Of a stretch of DNA of 32,000 nucleotides, positions 3,562 to 19,241 are shown piece by piece. Within the stretch, counting starts at the first letter, position 1. Each line of letters starts with the position of its first letter. The notes under the pieces were generated by a model. That model was not told where the DNA came from, did no database searches, and worked only from the letters and a program-made list of their open reading frames with translations. Location of the stretch: contig CAZETV010000002.1 in the NCBI GenBank assembly GCA_964514965.1, positions 188,545 to 220,544 on the forward strand, read 5' to 3'. The DNA is from Candidatus Hadarchaeota archaeon (lineage in GTDB: Archaea; Hadarchaeota; Hadarchaeia; Hadarchaeales; Hadarchaeaceae). A program made the translations under genes and the position numbers.

Positions 3562-3798
3562 TCAAGCCAGCACCACGAATACCACGCTATCGCCGCGAAT
3601 GAAAAGCAAACCGTATCGCTTTCTCACTCGGTCCCCCTCAAGGCTCGTGGCATCGTCGAGCACCAAATTCATGTGCATATCGTAAGCGCGCAACTTGCCA
3701 CGGAGCCTAGCCGCCCCTTTTAGCCCAACGATCACCTCGTTGCTCGAAGCGCGACCCAGTATTTCAGACAGAAGGCTTTCGGGACGAACTTGCACCAT
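3562..3798 (-). CDS. Sm-like archaeal protein (SmAP/LSm)
   Basis: 78 aa with Sm1 (VIVGLKGAARLRGKLRAYDMHMNLVLDDA) and Sm2 (LFIRGDSVVFV) motifs. Confidence 0.9.
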   Translation of the reverse strand: MVQVRPESLLSEILGRASSNEVIVGLKGAARLRGKLRAYDMHMNLVLDDATSLEGDRVRKRYGLLFIRGDSVVFVVLA

Positions 3799-4188
3799 CT
3801 ACCTACCCTCGCTCTTGCAGAGAATTTGTAGACTTTTCTGCAACTGCCCTCTCATCTGCACACGTATCTTCCGCTCGATGTGCATCCTCTCGCAGAGACT
3901 TTGAAGCCTTTTCTTCAACTGCTCCAGTTCATTGGTCCCTTCGCGGAGGTTTTCCAAGGTGGACTGGAGCTTGATCGCGAGGGATTGCTGCTCGTACAGG
4001 GGGCGTGAGTCCGGGAGCTCCCCGCGGTTTATCGATTCCTCGAGGTTGCTTGTGATTCGACTTATAAGCCCTTCCATCTCCTCGAGCTTCTTTGGGTCGA
4101 CCTTTACCGCCTCGAGCATCATCAAGGCTTTTCTCCATTGCTCAGCCCTTTTACTCATGCTATCTTCTCCACCAAACGAGCGAGCCAT
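3799..4188 (-). CDS. Coiled-coil protein, unknown function
   Basis: 129-aa ORF whose stop abuts the Sm start. It has long heptad-like Leu/Gln/Glu/Lys stretches (NELEQLKKRLQSLCERMHIERKIRVQMRGQLQKSLQIL). The start could be M11 (4158). No family recognised. Confidence 0.55.
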   Translation of the reverse strand: MARSFGGEDSMSKRAEQWRKALMMLEAVKVDPKKLEEMEGLISRITSNLEESINRGELPDSRPLYEQQSLAIKLQSTLENLREGTNELEQLKKRLQSLCERMHIERKIRVQMRGQLQKSLQILCKSEGR

Positions 4189-4224: not shown

Positions 4225-4235
4225 TCGAATTTCGA
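4225..4235. promoter_or_regulatory. Perfect copy of palindrome TCGAAWTTCGA (tcgaatttcga), 7 nt from an AT-rich TATA-like element at 4243-4253
   Basis: Read directly. It lies in the divergent intergenic region between the coiled-coil/Sm operon and the MEDS/PadR gene. Confidence 0.55.
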
Positions 4236-4273
4236 CACGAAATTAATATAAAAGCTGCAATGTAGTCATTTTA

Positions 4274-5149
4274 GTGTCATCCATGGTGAGCGAGGTGTCT
4301 TCCAACATAGAAACCGTGCTGTCGAGCATCGAGTTCAAACACACTCTACACCTCTACAGCTCCGATGTGAACAAGTACTCGGTTCAGGCACCCTTCCTAG
4401 CGGCCGCAAAGAAGGGCGAAACCGTTGTATACGTCACCAACGAGAGCCCCGCAGCGATGATGAAGGAGTTTGAGGGACTCGGTATCAAACTTTCCGTCAT
4501 AAAGCCCGAAGAGTTAGGAAAATTACCAATCACCAATCGCGGTCTGAGAGTAGTCGTAGACGCTGGCTCGATCGACCCGAGCATGCTCCGAAGGCTGAGA
4601 AGTCGAACACGGGAAGCGATAGCTAAGTACATCGACCACTCCAAGCGGGAAAAATACTTGGCTGAGAGATGTAAAGACTGCCTCATCTTGTGCACTTACG
4701 ACATGGGCAAGCTCGGTCCCGATTTGGTCAAACAACTCGTCGCATCCCACGATAAGCTGGTGCTAACGACGAGCGATGCGACCATCCTAGCGGCGGAGTC
4801 GCTGGATCGGGCTGGGCTTGCGGCTGAATCGGTTCAGCGGTTTGTGAAGGATGAACTTGAGACCATAGTTCTGGCGCTCGTGCTCAGGGAGCCAATGTGC
4901 GGCACCGACATAATAAAAACAATCCACAGCAAGTTCAACGTACTTTTGAGCCCGGGCACGATATACCCTCTCTTGCACGACCTTGAGAAGAAGGGGCTAT
5001 TGAAATGCGAGTACGGCGTAAAGACTAAGACCTACAAGCCGATGGAAGGCGCCGAGGAAAAAATCCGCGCCATGCTTGAGGAGCACGTCAAAGCGAGCAG
5101 GTTCCTGAGCAAGTTTTTGCAGGTCACCAGCGCGAGCGAAAAGCGGTAA
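4274..5149 (+). CDS. Transcription regulator: N-terminal MEDS-like sensory domain plus C-terminal PadR-type winged helix
   Basis: 291 aa (GTG 4274, or ATG 4283). The C-terminus LVLREPMCGTDIIKTIHSKFNVLLSPGTIYPLLHDLEKKGLLKCEY..KTYKP fits the PadR signature. The N-terminus HTLHLYSSDVNKYSVQAPFLAAAKKGETVVYV resembles MEDS. It is a paralog of 15819..16805. Confidence 0.8.
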   Translation: MSSMVSEVSSNIETVLSSIEFKHTLHLYSSDVNKYSVQAPFLAAAKKGETVVYVTNESPAAMMKEFEGLGIKLSVIKPEELGKLPITNRGLRVVVDAGSIDPSMLRRLRSRTREAIAKYIDHSKREKYLAERCKDCLILCTYDMGKLGPDLVKQLVASHDKLVLTTSDATILAAESLDRAGLAAESVQRFVKDELETIVLALVLREPMCGTDIIKTIHSKFNVLLSPGTIYPLLHDLEKKGLLKCEYGVKTKTYKPMEGAEEKIRAMLEEHVKASRFLSKFLQVTSASEKR

Positions 5150-5161
5150 CGGTTTTAGCGT

Positions 5162-5172
5162 TCAAATTTCGA
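5162..5172. promoter_or_regulatory. One-mismatch copy of the TCGAAWTTCGA palindrome (tcaaatttcga) upstream of the RHH gene
   Basis: Read directly; it lies 58 nt upstream of the ATG at 5230. Confidence 0.4.
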
Positions 5173-5229
5173 AACACAAACTTATTAGGGATTTTTTCAG
5201 CGGACTTTATGTGGTGGGGGTGATTTCAG

Positions 5230-5436
5230 ATGCTCGGAAGGCGATCAATTATGGGGATTGTTTCCTCCGCGGATTACGATAAACTTCAAAATATGTGTGC
5301 TCGAGAGGGATGTCGCATCTCAGATATAGTCGGCAGAATCGTTTCCCAGTACTTGGCCAGAGTCCCCGCGGAAAAAGTTGTGAAAGTAAAGAAAATAAAA
5401 AGGATTAAAAAGGCCAAGAAACGGGCCCCCAAGTAA
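5230..5436 (+). CDS. Small ribbon-helix-helix (CopG/Arc-like) DNA-binding protein with a Lys-rich tail
   Basis: 68 aa. A GGTGAT Shine-Dalgarno sequence lies about 6 nt upstream of the ATG. IVSSADYDKLQNMCAREGCRISDIVGRIVSQYL fits the RHH strand-helix-helix pattern. The tail is KVKKIKRIKKAKKRAPK. Confidence 0.6.
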   Translation: MLGRRSIMGIVSSADYDKLQNMCAREGCRISDIVGRIVSQYLARVPAEKVVKVKKIKRIKKAKKRAPK

Positions 5437-5620
5437 AATCCGCTCAAAACGAGGTGAACCCATGGGAAAATTGAAGGAGTGGTTTCGTAAGAAATCGAAG
5501 CGTAAGGCAAAGAAAAAGGGAAAATGATTCAGGGTTGATGGCTCATCTTTTTGCTTCTCAATTACCACCTTCGAAATCAGCTAGAATTCAGGCCCATTTT
5601 AATGTCGGATTTCTTTTGCG

Positions 5621-6970
5621 ATGGGTTGTATGTTTTCGAAGCTCGACACAAAACGTTTAAATCCCGCATATATCGAAATTCGATACGAGATTAGATACAA
5701 GGTGAAGTGTGTGGAGGTAAAACCACTTAGTAATATCATAGCTATCGGAAAGACGACGCGGGGGGGCAGACCATTCCCTGTCAGAAGGCATCGGGGCCTG
5801 TACTTTTTCATCCCGGTTGAGCAGTTCGACTGGTTAAGGGAAGTAAATGATGCTTACAAGACCCTCTACCGAATGGAGGGGGGGGTAGAGCCGCTTCAGA
5901 AGATAAAGATAGTTGGGAGAGGAGGCGTTGAGGGATACAAGCCATTCTTGCTCAGGGGGCACTACGGACGGTATTTGTGCATCCTCGCCGAGCATCTTAG
6001 ACAGCTCAAGCAGATCAACCGCGCGTATGCGGAACTACTTGAAGCTAAAGGGCTGGAGAAAGAGCGCAAGAGGAGGTTAGAAGAGAAGGAACGAGCGAGC
6101 AAAATTGTAGAAAGCGTGAAAGCGGCGGTAGAGGACGCCCGAAAGATAGGAGCACCCGAACATGGGGCCGAACTCATGCGGCCCGTCGACGAATCCCTTG
6201 CCGAAATCGAGGCTGCGTTCATCGCCGAGGAATACAACAAGACCATTGAGCTGGCATCAAAAGTGGATGAACTGGTCCGAGAAGCTAGGGCAAAAGCGCT
6301 CAAGAAAATCGAGGAAACGAAAAAGATCGAAGCGGTGAAAAGACCTCCAGAAGAGGGGAGGTACGTTTACTGCATCATCCCTTGGGAGGGGAGCCACAGC
6401 AGGCTTAGCTTTGGAGACTTGGGTGTAGAGGGCAACGGCGAGGTGTACGCCATACCCTTTGGAGACATCGCAGCGGTCGTGAGCAACGCCCCCTTCAAGG
6501 AATACGTGCTCACCGAGGACAACATACGCACCCATAACCAAGTCATAACGCGCGTGATGCAGGAGTACCCTGTCGTGCCAATGGCTTTCGGCATGGCGTT
6601 CAAAAATGAGGGGGTGCTCAAAGGGTTGCTCGGGAGGATGCGCGATGATTTGAAAAATGCCCTAAATGAAGTCAAGAGCAAGGTCGAACTCGGCGTCAAG
6701 GTGATCTTGCCGGAGGGGACCGAGTTCGACGAGAACGCATTTGCATCTGAGATCAAGGCGCTTCACGAGCTGGCGACCCAATGCAAGCTCGGCAAGCGGT
6801 TCAGCAAGCGTTTGATCTTGAACGCGTTTTATCTAGTAGCGAAAGAAAAAGTGGAAGATTTCCTAGGCGCGGCTAAAGCGCTGGAGGAGAAGTTCAAACA
6901 GCTGAGTATACAGTGCACTGGTCCATGGCCCCCGTTCAACTTCGCAACAATAAAAGTTGGAGGTAGGTGA
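5621..6970 (+). CDS. gvpF: GvpF/GvpL-family gas vesicle protein with a novel N-terminal duplicated ~45-aa module and a coiled-coil linker
   Basis: The C-terminal ~200 aa (GRYVYCIIP...FGDIAAVVS...PVVPMAFG...CTGPWPPFNFA) is classic GvpF/L. The N-terminal ~130 aa holds two repeats homologous to the 101-aa ORF at 9969..10274. The true start may be GVG-type: GTG 5702 or 5711 (see findings). Confidence 0.9.
   Translation: MGCMFSKLDTKRLNPAYIEIRYEIRYKVKCVEVKPLSNIIAIGKTTRGGRPFPVRRHRGLYFFIPVEQFDWLREVNDAYKTLYRMEGGVEPLQKIKIVGRGGVEGYKPFLLRGHYGRYLCILAEHLRQLKQINRAYAELLEAKGLEKERKRRLEEKERASKIVESVKAAVEDARKIGAPEHGAELMRPVDESLAEIEAAFIAEEYNKTIELASKVDELVREARAKALKKIEETKKIEAVKRPPEEGRYVYCIIPWEGSHSRLSFGDLGVEGNGEVYAIPFGDIAAVVSNAPFKEYVLTEDNIRTHNQVITRVMQEYPVVPMAFGMAFKNEGVLKGLLGRMRDDLKNALNEVKSKVELGVKVILPEGTEFDENAFASEIKALHELATQCKLGKRFSKRLILNAFYLVAKEKVEDFLGAAKALEEKFKQLSIQCTGPWPPFNFATIKVGGR
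5673..5683. promoter_or_regulatory. Perfect copy of the TCGAAWTTCGA palindrome preceded by ATATA (atatatcgaaattcga), inside the nominal 5' end of the gvpF ORF
   Basis: Read directly. The same 16-nt arrangement ATATATCGAAWTTCGA occurs upstream of gvpN (14339-14354, opposite strand). Confidence 0.55.
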
Positions 6971-14338: not shown

Positions 14339-14349
14339 TCGAAATTCGA
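14339..14349. promoter_or_regulatory. Perfect copy of the TCGAAWTTCGA palindrome abutting a TATA-like ATATAT element upstream of gvpN
   Basis: Plus strand tcgaaattcgatatatct. Read on the gvpN strand this is AGATATATCGAATTTCGA, 51-61 nt upstream of GTG 14288. Confidence 0.55.
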
Positions 14350-15130: not shown

Positions 15131-15352
15131 CTAAGGCGCAGCTGGTGCACCGATCGCAGCTGCCTCGATTTTCGTCATCTCTTCCGCGTAGTGGACGAAG
15201 GTGTCGACTGACGCCACTACCACACGAGCCTCAACAGTAAGTATCTCAATTCCAACTAGCGAAACTCGTGCCCAGACATCGACGACAATCCCCTTGTCGA
15301 GGATTCGATCGAGAACCTCTGCCAAGTTACTAATTGCTGGTCTAGCTGCCAT
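15131..15352 (-). CDS. gvpA: Major gas vesicle structural protein GvpA
   Basis: 73 aa. [48 protein letters not shown] is near-canonical GvpA. GGGAGGT lies 6 nt upstream of the ATG. Confidence 0.97.
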
Positions 15353-15389: not shown

Positions 15390-15818
15390 ATGTTTTTAAA
15401 CGAATTTTTTCTCGAAACTCACATCAGGAGTTGTTTTGAAATTCGAAAGTTGCATGATTCAGAAAGTTTATTTACAATCAATTCCAACTCTAAACGATGG
15501 GGTGAAGATTTGTCTGCTCGTAGAAATTTTTACAGAAGGATTGAGTTGCGCAGGGCATGGCTCGAGCGAAAGAAGCGAGCGACCGCCGCGATACAGGATC
15601 TCCGCTGGAAGCGACGGGCAGCCAAGCTGGGGAAAAAGCCTGCCCCTGAGGAAAAAGAAGCCCCAACTGAGGAAAAGGCCCCCGTGGAGGAAACCAGAGA
15701 GGAAGTTCCCGAAGAGAAAGCTCCCCAAGCGCCAAAAGATGAAGCGCCTGAGAAAAAGCCCACAGAAGAGGCGCCGCCCGAGAAGACTGGAGTCCCGCCC
15801 GCGCTCTTTCCCGAGTAA
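15390..15818 (+). CDS. Possible low-complexity protein: basic N-terminal half, Pro/Glu/Lys-rich (PEEK-type) C-terminal half
   Basis: 142-aa ORF divergent from gvpA. Several frames are open here because of GA-rich low complexity. This frame has neighbour-like codon choice (gag/aag/gcc). The nominal ATG overlaps the gvpA TATA box, so the start is doubtful. Confidence 0.3.
   Translation: MFLNEFFLETHIRSCFEIRKLHDSESLFTINSNSKRWGEDLSARRNFYRRIELRRAWLERKKRATAAIQDLRWKRRAAKLGKKPAPEEKEAPTEEKAPVEETREEVPEEKAPQAPKDEAPEKKPTEEAPPEKTGVPPALFPE
15393..15400 (-). promoter_or_regulatory. Candidate gvpA TATA box (TTTAAAAA on the gvpA strand)
   Basis: It lies 41-48 nt upstream of the gvpA ATG, leaving room for a leader of about 20 nt that carries the Shine-Dalgarno sequence. 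Confidence 0.5.
15436..15446. promoter_or_regulatory. One-mismatch copy of the TCGAAWTTCGA palindrome (ttgaaattcga) about 36-46 nt upstream of the gvpA TATA box
   Basis: Read directly. This is a UAS-like position relative to the putative TATA at 15393-15400. Confidence 0.45.
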
Positions 15819-16810: not shown

Positions 16811-16822
16811 CCCCCCCCCCCC
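16811..16822. repeat. Homopolymer C12 (G12 on the coding strand), 5 nt upstream of the ATG of the MEDS/PadR gene
   Basis: Counted directly: gtcatcgccg cccccccccc ccgacg. Confidence 0.95.
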
Positions 16823-17020: not shown

Positions 17021-17031
17021 TTGAAATCCGA
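17021..17031. promoter_or_regulatory. Two-mismatch copy of the palindrome (ttgaaatccga) in the divergent region between the MEDS/PadR-2 and wHTH genes
   Basis: Read directly. This is weaker than the other sites. Confidence 0.3.
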
Positions 17032-17098: not shown

Positions 17099-17407
17099 TT
17101 GGACGTGAAAACCTTGAACACACTGAAGGAACTTGAAAGGTCCGGCACGGTGCCGATACTCTTAGCCATAAGCCGACTGGGGAGAGGGAAATTTACCGAC
17201 ATCCATTACGAGAGCATCCGGATGGGCTTTAGGGTCGGGAGCGGTGTCGTCAGCAGGCGACTTGACCAGTTATGCGCTCTGGGATGGGTTCAAAAGATAA
17301 AGAATGAAGAAAGGAGTAAAGTTTTCACCCTAACCGAGAAGTGGTTAAGGCTAGCTAAAGCTATCAAGGAATTCATCCGAAGTTTAGAACGAAACAAAGT
17401 TGAGTAA
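17099..17407 (+). CDS. Small winged-helix (MarR/ArsR-like) DNA-binding protein
   Basis: 102 aa (TTG 17099 or GTG 17105). The ...GTVPILLAISRLGRGKFTDI...GVVSRRLDQLCALGWVQKIKNEERSKVFTLTEKW pattern reads as helix-turn-helix plus wing. Confidence 0.65.
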   Translation: MDVKTLNTLKELERSGTVPILLAISRLGRGKFTDIHYESIRMGFRVGSGVVSRRLDQLCALGWVQKIKNEERSKVFTLTEKWLRLAKAIKEFIRSLERNKVE

Positions 17408-17450: not shown

Positions 17451-18035
17451 TCAGGGCAACGACTCTACTAAGATGTCGGAGAGCAACCTCGACTTGACAT
17501 CGTGATCCGCCCCGATGAATAGGAGTCCTATCTCGTCGTCTTTTAGGGTGTCCCCGATCTCCCCTGCTATAAATGCATCGCGTGCGCGAAGGAGCTCACC
17601 CTTAACCTGATTATATCTGCGCTCGGCCTCAGCCCTCTCCTTACCCGTCCTAGCCTCGACGATCGCCTTGATGTGCTCGCGCTCCTTTTTCGATAGGTCT
17701 GGTTCCTCGGTGGCCTCGAGGGTCGCTCCCTTGCCGATTAATTTCCGAATGAGCTGGAAGTTCTTGCTCCCGGCATCTGCCACGGAGTTAACGATCTTCA
17801 TCCCGAGCTCCCCGCCGCACGGCAACCCGTCCTGATATATCCTGACGCGTGAATAATCCAGCCCGAGGGCATCCAGCTCGCGCTCGACCTCGCTCCAGAA
17901 TCGCTCAATCCTCCGCACATTCTCGATCCATCTCTGCTTCCCTAGCTTTGCGGCACTCACCCGCTCCAAGCTCTCGCGCACCGAGCCCATATCCTCCGGT
18001 GTGTGAACGATCGGTATGTACATAAGTTTTCTCAT
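17451..18035 (-). CDS. Hypothetical protein, last gene of the Hsp20-Hsp20 operon
   Basis: 194 aa, starting 14 nt after the upstream Hsp20 stop. No family recognised (N-terminus MRKLMYIPIVHTPEDMGS). Confidence 0.7.
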   Translation of the reverse strand: MRKLMYIPIVHTPEDMGSVRESLERVSAAKLGKQRWIENVRRIERFWSEVERELDALGLDYSRVRIYQDGLPCGGELGMKIVNSVADAGSKNFQLIRKLIGKGATLEATEEPDLSKKEREHIKAIVEARTGKERAEAERRYNQVKGELLRARDAFIAGEIGDTLKDDEIGLLFIGADHDVKSRLLSDILVESLP

Positions 18036-18049
18036 CTGACCATCAAATT

Positions 18050-18595
18050 TCAGCTTTCCGTCCTAGCTTTCTTCAGCTTTATCTCGAGGACGCCATGCTT
18101 GTAGCTTGTCGTTAGCTCGCCGCTGACGGGGGCCGGGAGTTCCACCCGCTCGCTGCAGTTTCGATCCCCTCGCTCGGCTGAAATCGTCAATACCGTCCCT
18201 TTTGCCTCGGCTCTTATATCGTGCTCCTCGACGCCGGGGAGCTCCGCCACCACTCGCAGGTGGTCTCCTTCATCGAAGACATCCACGGGGGGTTCCGTCC
18301 TTTCGGGCTCTCTCGGTGCGATCTTTTTAATCGGTCCCCTTCGTGTGGTTCTCGGCTTCTCACCCTCGATGATGTGCTTGACCGAATAGCCGCTTTCCAC
18401 ATGCGGGCGCAGGCTTCGATGCACGCCCCCGCGTATGTTTTCCTCTATTTGTTCGTTGACTTCCCTAAACCTCTGCTGGAACGCTGGCGATTGTAGCGCG
18501 AGGTCGACCAGATTGCTTAATCCGAGCTCCCTCAGTACGCCTTCCGCCATGCCCTCGCTTTTCTCTTCGGGCCTTTTCTTCTTCGCCATTTTCAC
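18050..18595 (-). CDS. Hsp20/alpha-crystallin small heat shock protein (GvpH-like paralog)
   Basis: PPVDVFDEGDHLRVVAELPGVEEHDIRAEAKGTVLTISAER...YKHGVLEIKLKK. The start is GTG 18595 (overlapping the upstream stop) or ATG 18589. Confidence 0.85.
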   Translation of the reverse strand: MKMAKKKRPEEKSEGMAEGVLRELGLSNLVDLALQSPAFQQRFREVNEQIEENIRGGVHRSLRPHVESGYSVKHIIEGEKPRTTRRGPIKKIAPREPERTEPPVDVFDEGDHLRVVAELPGVEEHDIRAEAKGTVLTISAERGDRNCSERVELPAPVSGELTTSYKHGVLEIKLKKARTES

Positions 18596-19119
18596 TCTGC
18601 CTTCTTCTTGAGCTTTACCTCTAGAACGCCGTTCTTGTAAGTCGACTCGAGTTCGCCCGTCACAGCCGCAGGAAGCTCAATTTCCTTCGAGTACTTTCGC
18701 TCCTTGGTCTCCGCTGAAATTTTCAGCGTTCGCTCTTTTATCTCGGTCTTGATGTCTTTCTCTTCAACCCCAGGAAGTTCCGCGATCACCGTTATCTCCT
18801 TCTCGTTCTCGAAGATGTCGACGAGTGGCTCCCTAACTTCTGCGACACCTAGCTTGAGCGTTGGTTTAATCGTGCCAAACCTGCTGAGCACCGGACCCTT
18901 TGGGCCGATCTTGACGCTCACCCCATACATCCCGTGGGGCAGCCTCCTTCGCTCGACTGAAACACCCGCCTTCTCTAGCTCCTTCGCCTCCTCGGCCAGC
19001 TTGGTAACTTGGCCGATAAACTCGCCGATCCCTGCGAACAATCCGCCTAGGTTGAGCCCCCACTCGATCACTGGCTCTGGCTTCTTCTCGGGATCTTTCT
19101 CCTTTTTTTCCTCCACCAT
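18592..19119 (-). CDS. Hsp20/alpha-crystallin small heat shock protein (GvpH-like paralog)
   Basis: 175 aa from the ATG at 19119 (GGAGGG lies 6-7 nt upstream). EPLVDIFENEKEITVIAELPGVEEKDIKTEIKERTLKISAE...YKNGVLEVKLKKK. The ORF-track start at 19197 adds an unlikely hydrophobic leader. Confidence 0.85.
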   Translation of the reverse strand: MVEEKKEKDPEKKPEPVIEWGLNLGGLFAGIGEFIGQVTKLAEEAKELEKAGVSVERRRLPHGMYGVSVKIGPKGPVLSRFGTIKPTLKLGVAEVREPLVDIFENEKEITVIAELPGVEEKDIKTEIKERTLKISAETKERKYSKEIELPAAVTGELESTYKNGVLEVKLKKKAE

Positions 19120-19241
19120 TTTTACATCCCTCCGAATCTCTATTTGGAATCCCCCATATATAAATGTTATCATTAGTGATGATATTTTTATAACCAAAAG
19201 TGATAAATATTAGAATGCGTTATTGTTATTTGGCGGTCAAC

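Follow-up and report, generated by a model that had tools for sequence, protein, structure and literature searches.

A GvpE-type PadR regulator fused to a MEDS-like domain, with a candidate palindromic operator, in gas-vesicle clusters outside the haloarchaea

What might control an archaeal gas-vesicle locus that has no gvpD? The question is raised by a stretch of 32,000 nt (referred to here as the window) from the genome of a Candidatus Hadarchaeota archaeon (family Hadarchaeaceae), which comprises 1.28 Mb on 3 contigs. The window holds a complete gas-vesicle (gvp) locus bracketed by two regulator genes, P0001 (4274-5149, + strand) and P0002 (15819-16805, - strand), of which P0001 lies directly upstream of gvpF. 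gvpD is absent from the locus, and elsewhere in the genome only one weak, generic KaiC-like match was found. GvpD and GvpE have been called haloarchaea-specific, and methanogen clusters have been said to lack gvpDE (PMC9501494); our literature search found no described GvpE-type, PadR, or MEDS regulator for the gvp clusters of non-halophilic organisms. An initial annotation, made from the DNA letters alone, had proposed that P0001 and P0002 are paralogues combining a MEDS-like with a PadR domain and that they bracket the gvp genes. Both open reading frames (ORFs) exist as proposed and enclose the genes from gvpF to gvpA, and the arrangement and the domain assignments held up. What is new is a GvpE-type PadR regulator that is fused to a MEDS/KaiC-like domain, is widespread outside the haloarchaea, and comes with a candidate operator.

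The PadR domain (Pfam PF03551, cut-off 27 bits) was recognized in both P0001 (34.6 bits, E 1.9e-8) and P0002 (41.6 bits, E 1.3e-10). For the MEDS domain (PF14417, cut-off 29.8 bits), P0001 scored 29.4 bits by hmmscan and 32.2 bits when the genome search summed two pieces, and P0002 reached only 18.5 to 19.4 bits. All 22 aligned members of the P0001 family (F1) matched both PadR and MEDS, the latter at E ≤ 1 with a best value of 1.2e-8. A profile-versus-profile comparison of the two N-terminal domains with hhalign gave a probability of 96.5% and an E value of 1e-9 over 137 columns, and BLASTP aligned P0001 and P0002 with 28% identity over ~200 residues (E 3e-24). A search of the whole genome found MEDS-like genes at these two positions only. 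By these sequence comparisons P0001 and P0002 are real paralogues, each consisting of a MEDS-like N-terminal domain and a C-terminal PadR winged helix. In P0001, the MEDS-like domain (~aa 20-168) is connected by a linker to the winged helix with its long C-terminal helix (~aa 184-288), and in P0002 (family F2) a diverged MEDS-like domain precedes a GvpE-type PadR domain. As the homologues begin with MVSEVSS, the true start of P0001 is probably ATG 4283.

The sequence profile of P0001 matched PadR chains in the PDB with E values down to 8e-7. An AlphaFold2 model built on the 22-sequence alignment had a mean predicted local distance difference test score (pLDDT) of 79, and its residues 184-288 superpose on the PadR structures 4esf, 1xma, LmrR, and Rv3488 with Foldseek target TM scores of 0.75 to 0.81. 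Within the winged helix-turn-helix (wHTH) of F1, residues P207, C209, G210, S226, G228, T229, Y231, P232, L233, and L234 are invariant, and the recognition helices of P0002 and P0001 are nearly alike (LSQGTVYPLLYDL versus LSPGTIYPLLHDL).

The initial annotation knew of no PadR-type gvp regulator, yet Halobacterium GvpE itself passes the Pfam PadR threshold with 30 bits against the cut-off of 27 (E 5.3e-7). The F1 alignment matched a single GvpE sequence with an hhalign probability of 97.4% (E 1.2e-11, 33% identity over 90 columns) and a profile of 11 GvpE sequences with 98.3% (E 2.3e-14); for F2 and the same profile the values were 97.9% and 4.5e-13. The homology covers the conserved domain of GvpE, residues ~79-171. 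Common to F1, F2, and GvpE are the residues CG, which replace the usual GY before helix 2, and the motif F(N/G)..LSPGT(I/V)YP.L in the recognition helix. A tree built from 89 PadR domains placed the three in one group, with a support of 93 in the approximate likelihood-ratio test (SH-aLRT), apart from 37 other bacterial and archaeal PadR proteins picked for the most similar recognition helix; GvpE sits there on a long branch beside F1, and given the short alignment the tree is indicative only.

Genome-wide searches gave the same picture in both directions. In each of five haloarchaeal genomes with gvpD, the best match to the F1 profile was the gene immediately downstream of gvpD, i.e., gvpE, which in four of the five was the sole match at E ≤ 0.01. 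When Halobacterium GvpE was searched against the Hadarchaeota genome, P0001 was retrieved with E 3.3e-10, P0002 with 1e-7, and an unrelated PadR protein with 1.4e-4; P0001 and GvpE are reciprocal best genome-wide matches. One haloarchaeal genome has, ~9 kb from gvpE, a second open frame of 143 aa with a GvpE-like PadR match (G054:C1:13807-14103; E 1.2e-9 to the F1 profile). Judged by homology, P0001 is related to GvpE without being a canonical GvpE, and it is as such a relative that it occupies the gvpE slot; the proposal that an unrelated PadR regulator had taken the place of gvpD/gvpE was not borne out. GvpE has been described as leucine-zipper (bZIP)-like (PMC4390858, PMC9501494), and a 2024 paper carries the database label 'PadR transcriptional regulator-GvpE' (PMC11218638). 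Our results suggest that, in structure, GvpE belongs with the PadR winged helices and not with the bZIP proteins.

Is this type of regulator a general part of gvp clusters? In a search of 5.8 billion proteins we found 340 relatives of P0001, mostly of 265 to 300 aa. A locus scan with one genome per species returned 80 loci, 40 of which (L017-L056) contain a full-length relative; one more (L058) has a contig-truncated gene of which only the C-terminal part matched. In all 41 the regulator gene is located directly upstream of gvpF-gvpG, the usual order being gvpN-gvpO-F1-gvpF-gvpG, and the contexts of called genes agree with this placement beside gvp genes. By their record titles, the 41 loci come from Thermoplasmatales, Methanocellales, Bathyarchaeia, Aenigmatarchaeota, Micrarchaeota, Nanoarchaeota, Methanoperedens, Methanosarcinales/Methanosarcina, and Hadarchaeota, with two records labelled bacterial; overall, at least eight archaeal lineages are represented. 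Among 41 relatives of the genome studied here, gvpA was found only in G000 and G024, and the MEDS-type N-terminal domain only in the same two.

In Methanosarcinia, GvpK was present in 63 of 251 genomes and a match to the F1 profile (E ≤ 1e-20) in 31; 23 of these 31 were GvpK-positive, where ~8 were expected. Linkage to gvp genes is found both in the 41 loci and in this class. Six of the 31 genomes encode a full-length protein, and most others a PadR-only protein within a few kilobases of gvpK. The eight GvpK-negative matches were considered as counter-examples to the gvp linkage of the full-length family and were rejected as such: the one examined (L121) is a fusion of a receiver domain with PadR, not of MEDS with PadR. 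In L121 (3390-4202, - strand) and in P0176 and P0177, receiver-PadR fusions all, the PadR part matches the F1/F2 profile. The L121 fusion gene adjoins a gene for a PAS/HAMP protein, and GvpK was not found in that genome. The existence of such fusions means that more than one kind of sensor module has become joined to the GvpE-type DNA-binding domain.

Judged from this distribution, GvpE-type control is not restricted to haloarchaea. The gvp clusters of Hadarchaeota, Bathyarchaeia, Methanoperedens, Methanosarcina, Methanocellales, Thermoplasmatales, and DPANN archaea have a GvpE-type regulator among their conserved core components. In most cases this protein carries a fused MEDS/KaiC-like domain, and a conserved candidate operator accompanies the gene.

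F1-like and F2-like genes also occur without gvp genes, in adjacent and convergent orientation, on a JGI contig (L011, F1 81% identical) and in Ca. Hadarchaeum genomes, where F1 is reduced to its PadR part. At L011 (10001-11976) nothing lies between the two convergent regulator genes, and in G024 (L102, G024:C45 1010-1700) a deletion has joined F1, at about its codon 168, to the 5' end of gvpA in antisense orientation. Because of this junction, and because L011 has the arrangement expected if the DNA between the regulators is lost, the gvp-less pairs look like remnants left after loss of the gvp cluster by deletion. F2 is much rarer than F1, with 55 relatives, and was found in full length in the window, L011, L013/14 (split), and L024. 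At L098 a 359-aa PadR gene is located upstream of gvpA, and at L099 a protein 84% identical to P0002 (P0124) is encoded in that position; most other clusters with a second PadR-type gene carry a short PadR-only one of 97 to 146 aa.

Which DNA might P0001 read? The palindrome TCGAAWTTCGA, regarded by the initial annotation as a natural target of dimeric PadR domains, occurs in three exact copies in the 1.28-Mb genome, all of them in this locus (window positions 4225, 5673, and 14339), and one-mismatch copies are present at 5162 and 15436. Genome-wide there are 26 sites with at most one mismatch, five of them within the locus, which makes up 1% of the genome; the background was estimated from the expected density and from shuffles. 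This locus specificity, together with conservation at gvp promoters of distant archaea (described below), makes the palindrome a plausible target on comparative grounds. At four promoters of the locus the palindrome is followed, at near-constant spacing, by one nucleotide, the element ACGA(A/G)A, and an A/T-rich box.

The first candidate operator, O1 (4225-4235), is an exact TCGAATTTCGA followed one base later by ACGAAA (4237-4242), which resembles a TFB-recognition element (BRE), and by the TATA-like TTAATATAAAA (4243-4253). The same palindrome-cACGAAA-TATA module is located upstream of the regulator gene in L017 (Thermoplasmatales), L018 (Methanocellales), L013, L097, L098, L011, and G024; TCGAAWTTCGA-cACGAAA-TATATA is the form conserved in clusters whose regulator gene has a separate promoter. 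In the window, the distance of 30 nt from the box to ATG 4283 and the lack of a Shine-Dalgarno (SD) sequence suggest that the P0001 mRNA is leaderless. An Lsm gene and a gene for a 129-aa coiled-coil protein (3562-4188, - strand) are divergent from P0001 and share an 85-bp promoter region with it; O1 therefore lies between the shared A/T box and the start of the Lsm/coiled-coil genes. Downstream of P0001, a one-mismatch site (5162-5172, TCAAATTTCGA), replaced by an exact TCGAATTTCGA in L119/L120, the two closest relatives, has a TATA-like CTTATTAGG 8 nt downstream, and this region is a putative promoter of two small ORFs.

Candidate operator O3 (5673-5683) is an exact TCGAAATTCGA inside the 15-bp palindrome TATCGAAATTCGATA, between a TTTAAAT sequence (5656-5662) and the SD and GTG start codon (5711) of gvpF. 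A 1-nt indel relative to L119/L120 at ~5663 shows that the sequence upstream of it is non-coding, and because of this indel and the SD-led GTG we regard TTTAAAT as the gvpF TATA box. The palindrome would therefore be close to the transcription start, a repressor-type position. Candidate operator O4 (14339-14349) is an exact copy upstream of gvpN (- strand, start GTG 14288) and reads agATATA-TCGAATTTCGA-aACGAAA on the gvpN strand; a module of this type is also present upstream of gvpN in Methanoperedens and in another Hadarchaeota genome. An operator-like site with one mismatch (15436-15446, TTGAAATTCGA) lies 84 to 94 nt upstream of the gvpA start and is conserved in G024, and sites at a similar distance from gvpA were found in L013, L027/28, L038/40, and L051. 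The 5' region of P0002 contains a two-mismatch copy on the - strand (17021-17031, TCGGATTTCAA), followed by a TATA-like GATAAAAAT, that is indistinguishable from chance.

In 45 non-redundant gvp loci (620 kb) we counted 52 sites with at most one mismatch, compared with 12.6 in shuffled sequences. As many as 28 of the 52 lie within 160 nt upstream of gvpA, gvpN, F1, or gvpF, regions that make up 4.2% of the sequence and in which 2.2 sites were expected; the nominal P value of 4e-25 for this enrichment is inflated by the relatedness of the loci. At least one site is present in 23 of the 45. In Methanoperedens, ATATA-TCGAATTTCGT-tACGAAAAGGAG directly precedes gvpN.

Further evidence came from PadR proteins remote from gvp clusters. 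A standalone 99-aa PadR protein of Thermococcus (L095 7202-7517; also L085) has the recognition helix SPGTIYPLLH, as in F1, and its gene, ahead of a gene for a major facilitator superfamily transporter, carries ATATCGAAATTCGATAT 6 nt upstream of the annotated start. This joint occurrence of helix and palindrome is independent support for the protein-DNA link. At acidobacterial PadR loci (L077 361-417, L078, L086 7731-7787, and others), whose proteins have the recognition helix PGT(I/V)YPLLH, paired TCGAATTTCGA sites 46 bp apart are located ~1.6 to 2.3 kb upstream of the PadR gene, in several loci with a TTGACC hexamer after the first site. The Thermococcus and acidobacterial cases suggest a PadR subfamily with a common DNA specificity. 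The upstream activating sequence (UAS) in the PA-PD intergenic region of Halobacterium showed no obvious resemblance to the palindrome by eye.

We therefore favor, with a probability of roughly two in three, the reading that P0001 is a cluster-specific, one-component GvpE-type regulator that acts on the palindrome and whose N-terminal domain is MEDS-like and lacks a P-loop. A P0001 dimer, formed via the long C-terminal helix, would bind (tA)TCGAAWTTCGA(Ta) at sites that adjoin or overlie the BRE/TATA region at its own promoter, at the small-ORF promoter, at gvpF and gvpN, and, more weakly, at gvpA. The UAS of GvpE consists of two 8-nt elements 4 nt apart and must abut the BRE (PMC4390858); as O1 likewise abuts a BRE-like element followed by a TATA box, GvpE-like activation would be expected at the P0001 promoter, plausibly in the form of positive autoregulation. 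At gvpF and gvpN the site may sit between the TATA box and the transcription start, so that a dual, activating and repressing action would be possible. The MEDS domain might gate DNA binding or stability via a small molecule or a partner protein, and would then do within one molecule something comparable to what GvpD does to GvpE; ligand sensing by this domain, as proposed initially, has the standing of an inference. Since its recognition helix is almost identical to that of P0001, P0002 would be a likely competitor for the same sites or a heterodimerization partner.

Several observations weigh against this reading. The palindrome is upstream of the BRE/TATA at the P0001 promoter and probably downstream of the TATA box at gvpF and gvpN, which leaves the sign of regulation ambiguous. 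The half-site centers are 6 bp apart, which is close for a winged-helix dimer unless the flanks contribute. Most characterized PadR proteins are repressors. The motif statistics over loci profit from shared ancestry, and in 22 of the 45 loci no site with at most one mismatch was found within the stretches examined. In most Methanoperedens and Bathyarchaeia clusters the regulator gene lacks a promoter of its own. Finally, some Hadarchaeota retain the regulator pair without gvp genes, and the pair may have other targets there.

The alternative that survives best, in our estimate a doubtful one, is that P0001 is a classical PadR repressor: the apo or ligand-free dimer would block the TATA-binding protein and transcription factor B (TBP/TFB) or RNA polymerase, a signal received by the MEDS domain would release it, and no activation would be involved. 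The prevalence of repressors in the family speaks for it, as do the names of the matched PDB entries, which are repressors, and the position of O3 between the presumed TATA box and the start of gvpF; at gvpN and in Methanoperedens, likewise, ATATA stands immediately before the palindrome, with the SD and the start codon within the next 20 to 50 nt. However, at the P0001 promoter, probably that of a leaderless mRNA, and at the small-ORF promoter the palindrome is located 1 to 8 nt upstream of BRE/TATA-like elements at constant spacing, and GvpE, the nearest characterized relative, is an activator whose UAS is required to abut the BRE (PMC4390858).

The palindrome could also be read by another protein, and one candidate is encoded between P0001 and gvpF. 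P0003 (5230-5436, + strand; 68 aa, or 61 aa from ATG 5251) is a small, basic, lineage-specific protein with a lysine-rich tail, and a mini-ORF of 21 aa (5462-5527, + strand), highly basic (MGKLKEWFRKKSKRKAKKKGK), follows behind a strong, near-perfect SD sequence, GAGGTGA. Both have good SD sequences and are intact in L119/L120, where the region is 95% identical. The 470-bp segment that contains them is missing from relatives with an F1 75 to 84% identical, in which gvpF begins 57 to 81 bp after F1. No P0003 homologue was found in any other gvp locus of the scan, a full HMMER scan of 1.8 billion representatives yielded one homologous cluster only, and there was no match in Pfam or NCBIfam. P0003 had initially been called a ribbon-helix-helix (RHH) protein. 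Its single-sequence AlphaFold2 model (pLDDT 71) has a short coil at the N-terminus, two helices whose lengths resemble those of RHH proteins, and a basic helix, and RHH proteins (ORF56, CopG, AtaR, omega) head its Foldseek list with a non-significant best E value of 2.3. The ORF as such is real and conserved in the closest relatives; the modeled topology is compatible with RHH, and the assignment is unproven. P0003 is a recent, lineage-specific insert and not a general part of the system, and it cannot be the general reader of a palindrome conserved across phyla.

We consider it unlikely that the palindrome is read by P0003, by P0002, by a paralogue consisting of PadR alone, or by the winged-helix protein of 102 aa encoded at 17099-17407, and that P0001 acts mainly through protein contacts, for instance by titrating the reader as GvpD titrates GvpE. 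Many clusters do have a second GvpE-like PadR gene, either a full-length F2 (window, L011, L013, L024) or a PadR-only gene for 97 to 146 aa, the F2 recognition helix is nearly identical to that of F1, and the clusters L123-L127 and L133 encode a PadR-only protein and, as its separate partner, a KaiC-like one. Yet none of the other clusters that retain the palindrome has P0003, F1 alone among the regulators is present in every cluster of the F1-gvpF type, and the most conserved positions of F1 include those of its wHTH, which points to a retained DNA-reading function. That the regulator pair is a mobile or general module which travels with gvp islands and controls other genes is very improbable: it would account for the gvp-less pairs of L011 and several Ca. 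Hadarchaeum genomes and for the 21 one-mismatch sites outside the locus, but each of the 41 loci whose relative is full-length or contig-truncated has it linked to gvpF, the arrangements without gvp genes resemble the outcome of deletions, as seen at the G024 junction and at L011, and ~20 one-mismatch sites are the chance expectation in 1.28 Mb.

What, then, is the N-terminal domain of the favored one-component regulator? Residues ~20-168 of P0001 form a domain of alternating strands and helices in the AlphaFold2 model, and its nearest structures in Foldseek were FlaH (4yds), KaiC (8dba), Sak4, RadA (4dc9), and Elp4-6, with E values of ~6e-4. The domain thus models as a RecA/KaiC-like fold without a P-loop: no Walker A motif was found, as the glycine-rich loop is missing between strand 1 (KHTLHLY) and helix 1. 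The polar residues H23, Q38, D96, E126, C140, Y142, H159, and D168 are invariant and may serve in contacts with a ligand or partner.

The N-terminal domain of GvpD is KaiC-like as well (Pfam KaiC, 9e-15), and homology between it and the MEDS-like domain was considered and rejected. The Pfam GvpD models (PF07088/PF20440) found no match in P0001, and hhalign gave E 0.2 with a single GvpD sequence and E 0.025 with a 13-sequence GvpD profile, at a probability below 2%. Homology to the methanogen KaiC-like family described below was likewise discarded (E 0.26, not significant). The weak alignments all choose one structurally equivalent strand-helix segment, GETVVYVTNESPAAMMKEFEGLGI in P0001, DSDVLYVSTRVDQETVHE in GvpD, and EHGLYASLEQTRDSHLKNMESIGI in the methanogen KaiC-like protein. 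P0001 does not belong to the GvpD family, and on the evidence of the models the resemblance stands at the level of the fold only.

In a clade of Methanosarcinia (L123-L127, L133) the gvp cluster holds a gene for a 129-aa PadR-only GvpE-like protein followed by one for a 231-aa KaiC-family protein. The latter has a Pfam KaiC match of 1.4e-27 and a degenerate, still recognizable Walker A motif (GGEGTLKS), and it matches the N-terminal domain of GvpD with an hhalign probability of 91.5% (E 8.6e-7). Going by these matches, the pair looks like a GvpE/GvpD-like pair outside the haloarchaea, apparently undescribed. At L123 (1218-3787) a receiver-domain gene and a DUF835 gene precede the 129-aa PadR gene, which the KaiC-family gene overlaps or abuts. 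The pairing of a GvpE-type DNA binder with a KaiC-like protein recurs, in separate and active form in haloarchaea and in separate and degenerate form in the L123-type methanogens; F1 and F2 possibly represent a third form, fused and P-loop-less.

This raises the tentative idea that MEDS and GvpD share a true common origin. If so, which we consider possible and rather less probable than not, the fused MEDS-PadR proteins and the GvpD/GvpE pair would be two states of one ancient gvp module made of a KaiC-like governor and a GvpE-type binder. Haloarchaea would have kept the governor as a separate, active ATPase (GvpD), some Methanosarcinia would have kept it separate with a degenerate Walker A, and in F1 and F2 it would have been fused to the DNA binder, would have lost its P-loop, and would now be classified as MEDS. 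MEDS domains in general might then be decayed KaiC-like switches, and the poorly understood antagonism of GvpD and GvpE would gain an intramolecular, structurally tractable counterpart.

The remaining genes of the locus are arranged in two convergent sets. The + strand run gvpF-G-H-...-K-L-J/M is opened by gvpF (GvpL_GvpF family; 5711-6970, the mechanical ORF beginning at 5621) and comprises, in order, gvpF/L, gvpG, an Hsp20/GvpH-like gene, two unassigned genes, gvpK, gvpL/F, and gvpJ/M. The - strand set contains gvpA (15131-15352; Pfam Gas_vesicle, E 1.8e-14), two small genes, gvpN, a gene for a 121-aa protein, gvpO, a gene for a Cdc48 AAA+ protein, and a gene for a 101-aa protein. P0002 is located upstream of gvpA on the same strand, and between it and the gvpA promoter there is a + strand ORF (15390-15818) with a basic N-terminal part (RRIELRRAWLERKKRATAAIQDLRWKRRAAKLGKK) and an acidic, Pro/Glu-rich tail; its stop abuts that of P0002 (15818/15819), and L099 has a called gene for 90 aa there. 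The leader of P0002 contains, 5 nt ahead of the ATG, a G12 homopolymer on the coding strand (16811-16822, cgtcGGGGGGGGGGGGcggcgATG) that could either be prone to slippage or have arisen as an artefact of assembly. P0002 had been taken to close the far end of the locus. However, beyond it there are two GvpH/Hsp20-like genes and an unassigned gene for 194 aa (17451-19197, - strand), and since the orthologue of P0002 in L099 has the same neighbors, the second regulator is probably not the end of the functional locus.

Taken together, P0001 and the palindrome are a concrete candidate pair of regulator and operator through which buoyancy control in uncultured anaerobic archaea can be put to the test. 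They could serve as a handle for the controlled heterologous expression of archaeal gas vesicles, which are in use as acoustic reporters, and they are a pointer to how the GvpD/GvpE switch may have evolved.

How does P0001 compare with known systems? DcmR and the Msr methanol/methylsulfide regulators reportedly carry a MEDS domain (Anantharaman & Aravind 2005; Bose & Metcalf 2008), and P0001 shares with them, at the level of architecture only, the one-component combination of an N-terminal MEDS-type domain and a C-terminal helix-turn-helix in methanogen-type archaea. The Msr proteins, a family described in Methanosarcina acetivorans (PMC3419521), regulate methyltransferase genes and not gvp genes, and the MEDS score of P0001 is at the Pfam threshold. 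With members of the PadR family (PadR, LmrR, Rv3488) P0001 has in common the winged helix with its C-terminal dimerization helix and a palindromic target beside its own gene, which in the case of P0001 is a candidate, by comparison only. Classical members, however, have 100 to 190 aa and bind their effector inside the PadR dimer, whereas P0001 has a separate, fused, sensor-like N-terminal domain and, as in GvpE, CG in the place of GY.

The PadR-only proteins of the Methanosarcinia pair are of the GvpE type, 37 to 46% identical to P0001 and P0002, and are encoded inside the gvp cluster; in contrast to P0001, the pair consists of two polypeptides, and its KaiC-like protein matches GvpD and not the MEDS domain. 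GvpD, a KaiC-like P-loop NTPase that antagonizes GvpE, resembles P0001 in the KaiC/RecA-like fold modeled for the N-terminal domain and in being associated with a GvpE-type domain just upstream of gvpF, encoded next to it in the case of GvpD and fused to it in P0001. P0001 differs from it in lacking the Walker A motif, which is essential for GvpD function, and the bR2 domain. GvpE, finally, which in Halobacterium salinarum and Haloferax mediterranei activates gas-vesicle genes from the gvpA and gvpD promoters, is a protein of 191 aa with an acidic, unstructured N-terminus and a separate partner in GvpD, whereas P0001 has a folded MEDS/KaiC-like domain of ~160 aa and is encoded in a locus without gvpD; the candidate site of P0001 is a palindrome of 11 to 15 bp, compared with the paired 8-nt elements of the GvpE UAS (PMC4390858). 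The two proteins agree in their homologous DNA-binding domain, assigned to the PadR family by Pfam, in the slot immediately upstream of gvpF, and in a cis-element that abuts the BRE/TATA region of the own promoter, like UAS-D (PMC4390858).

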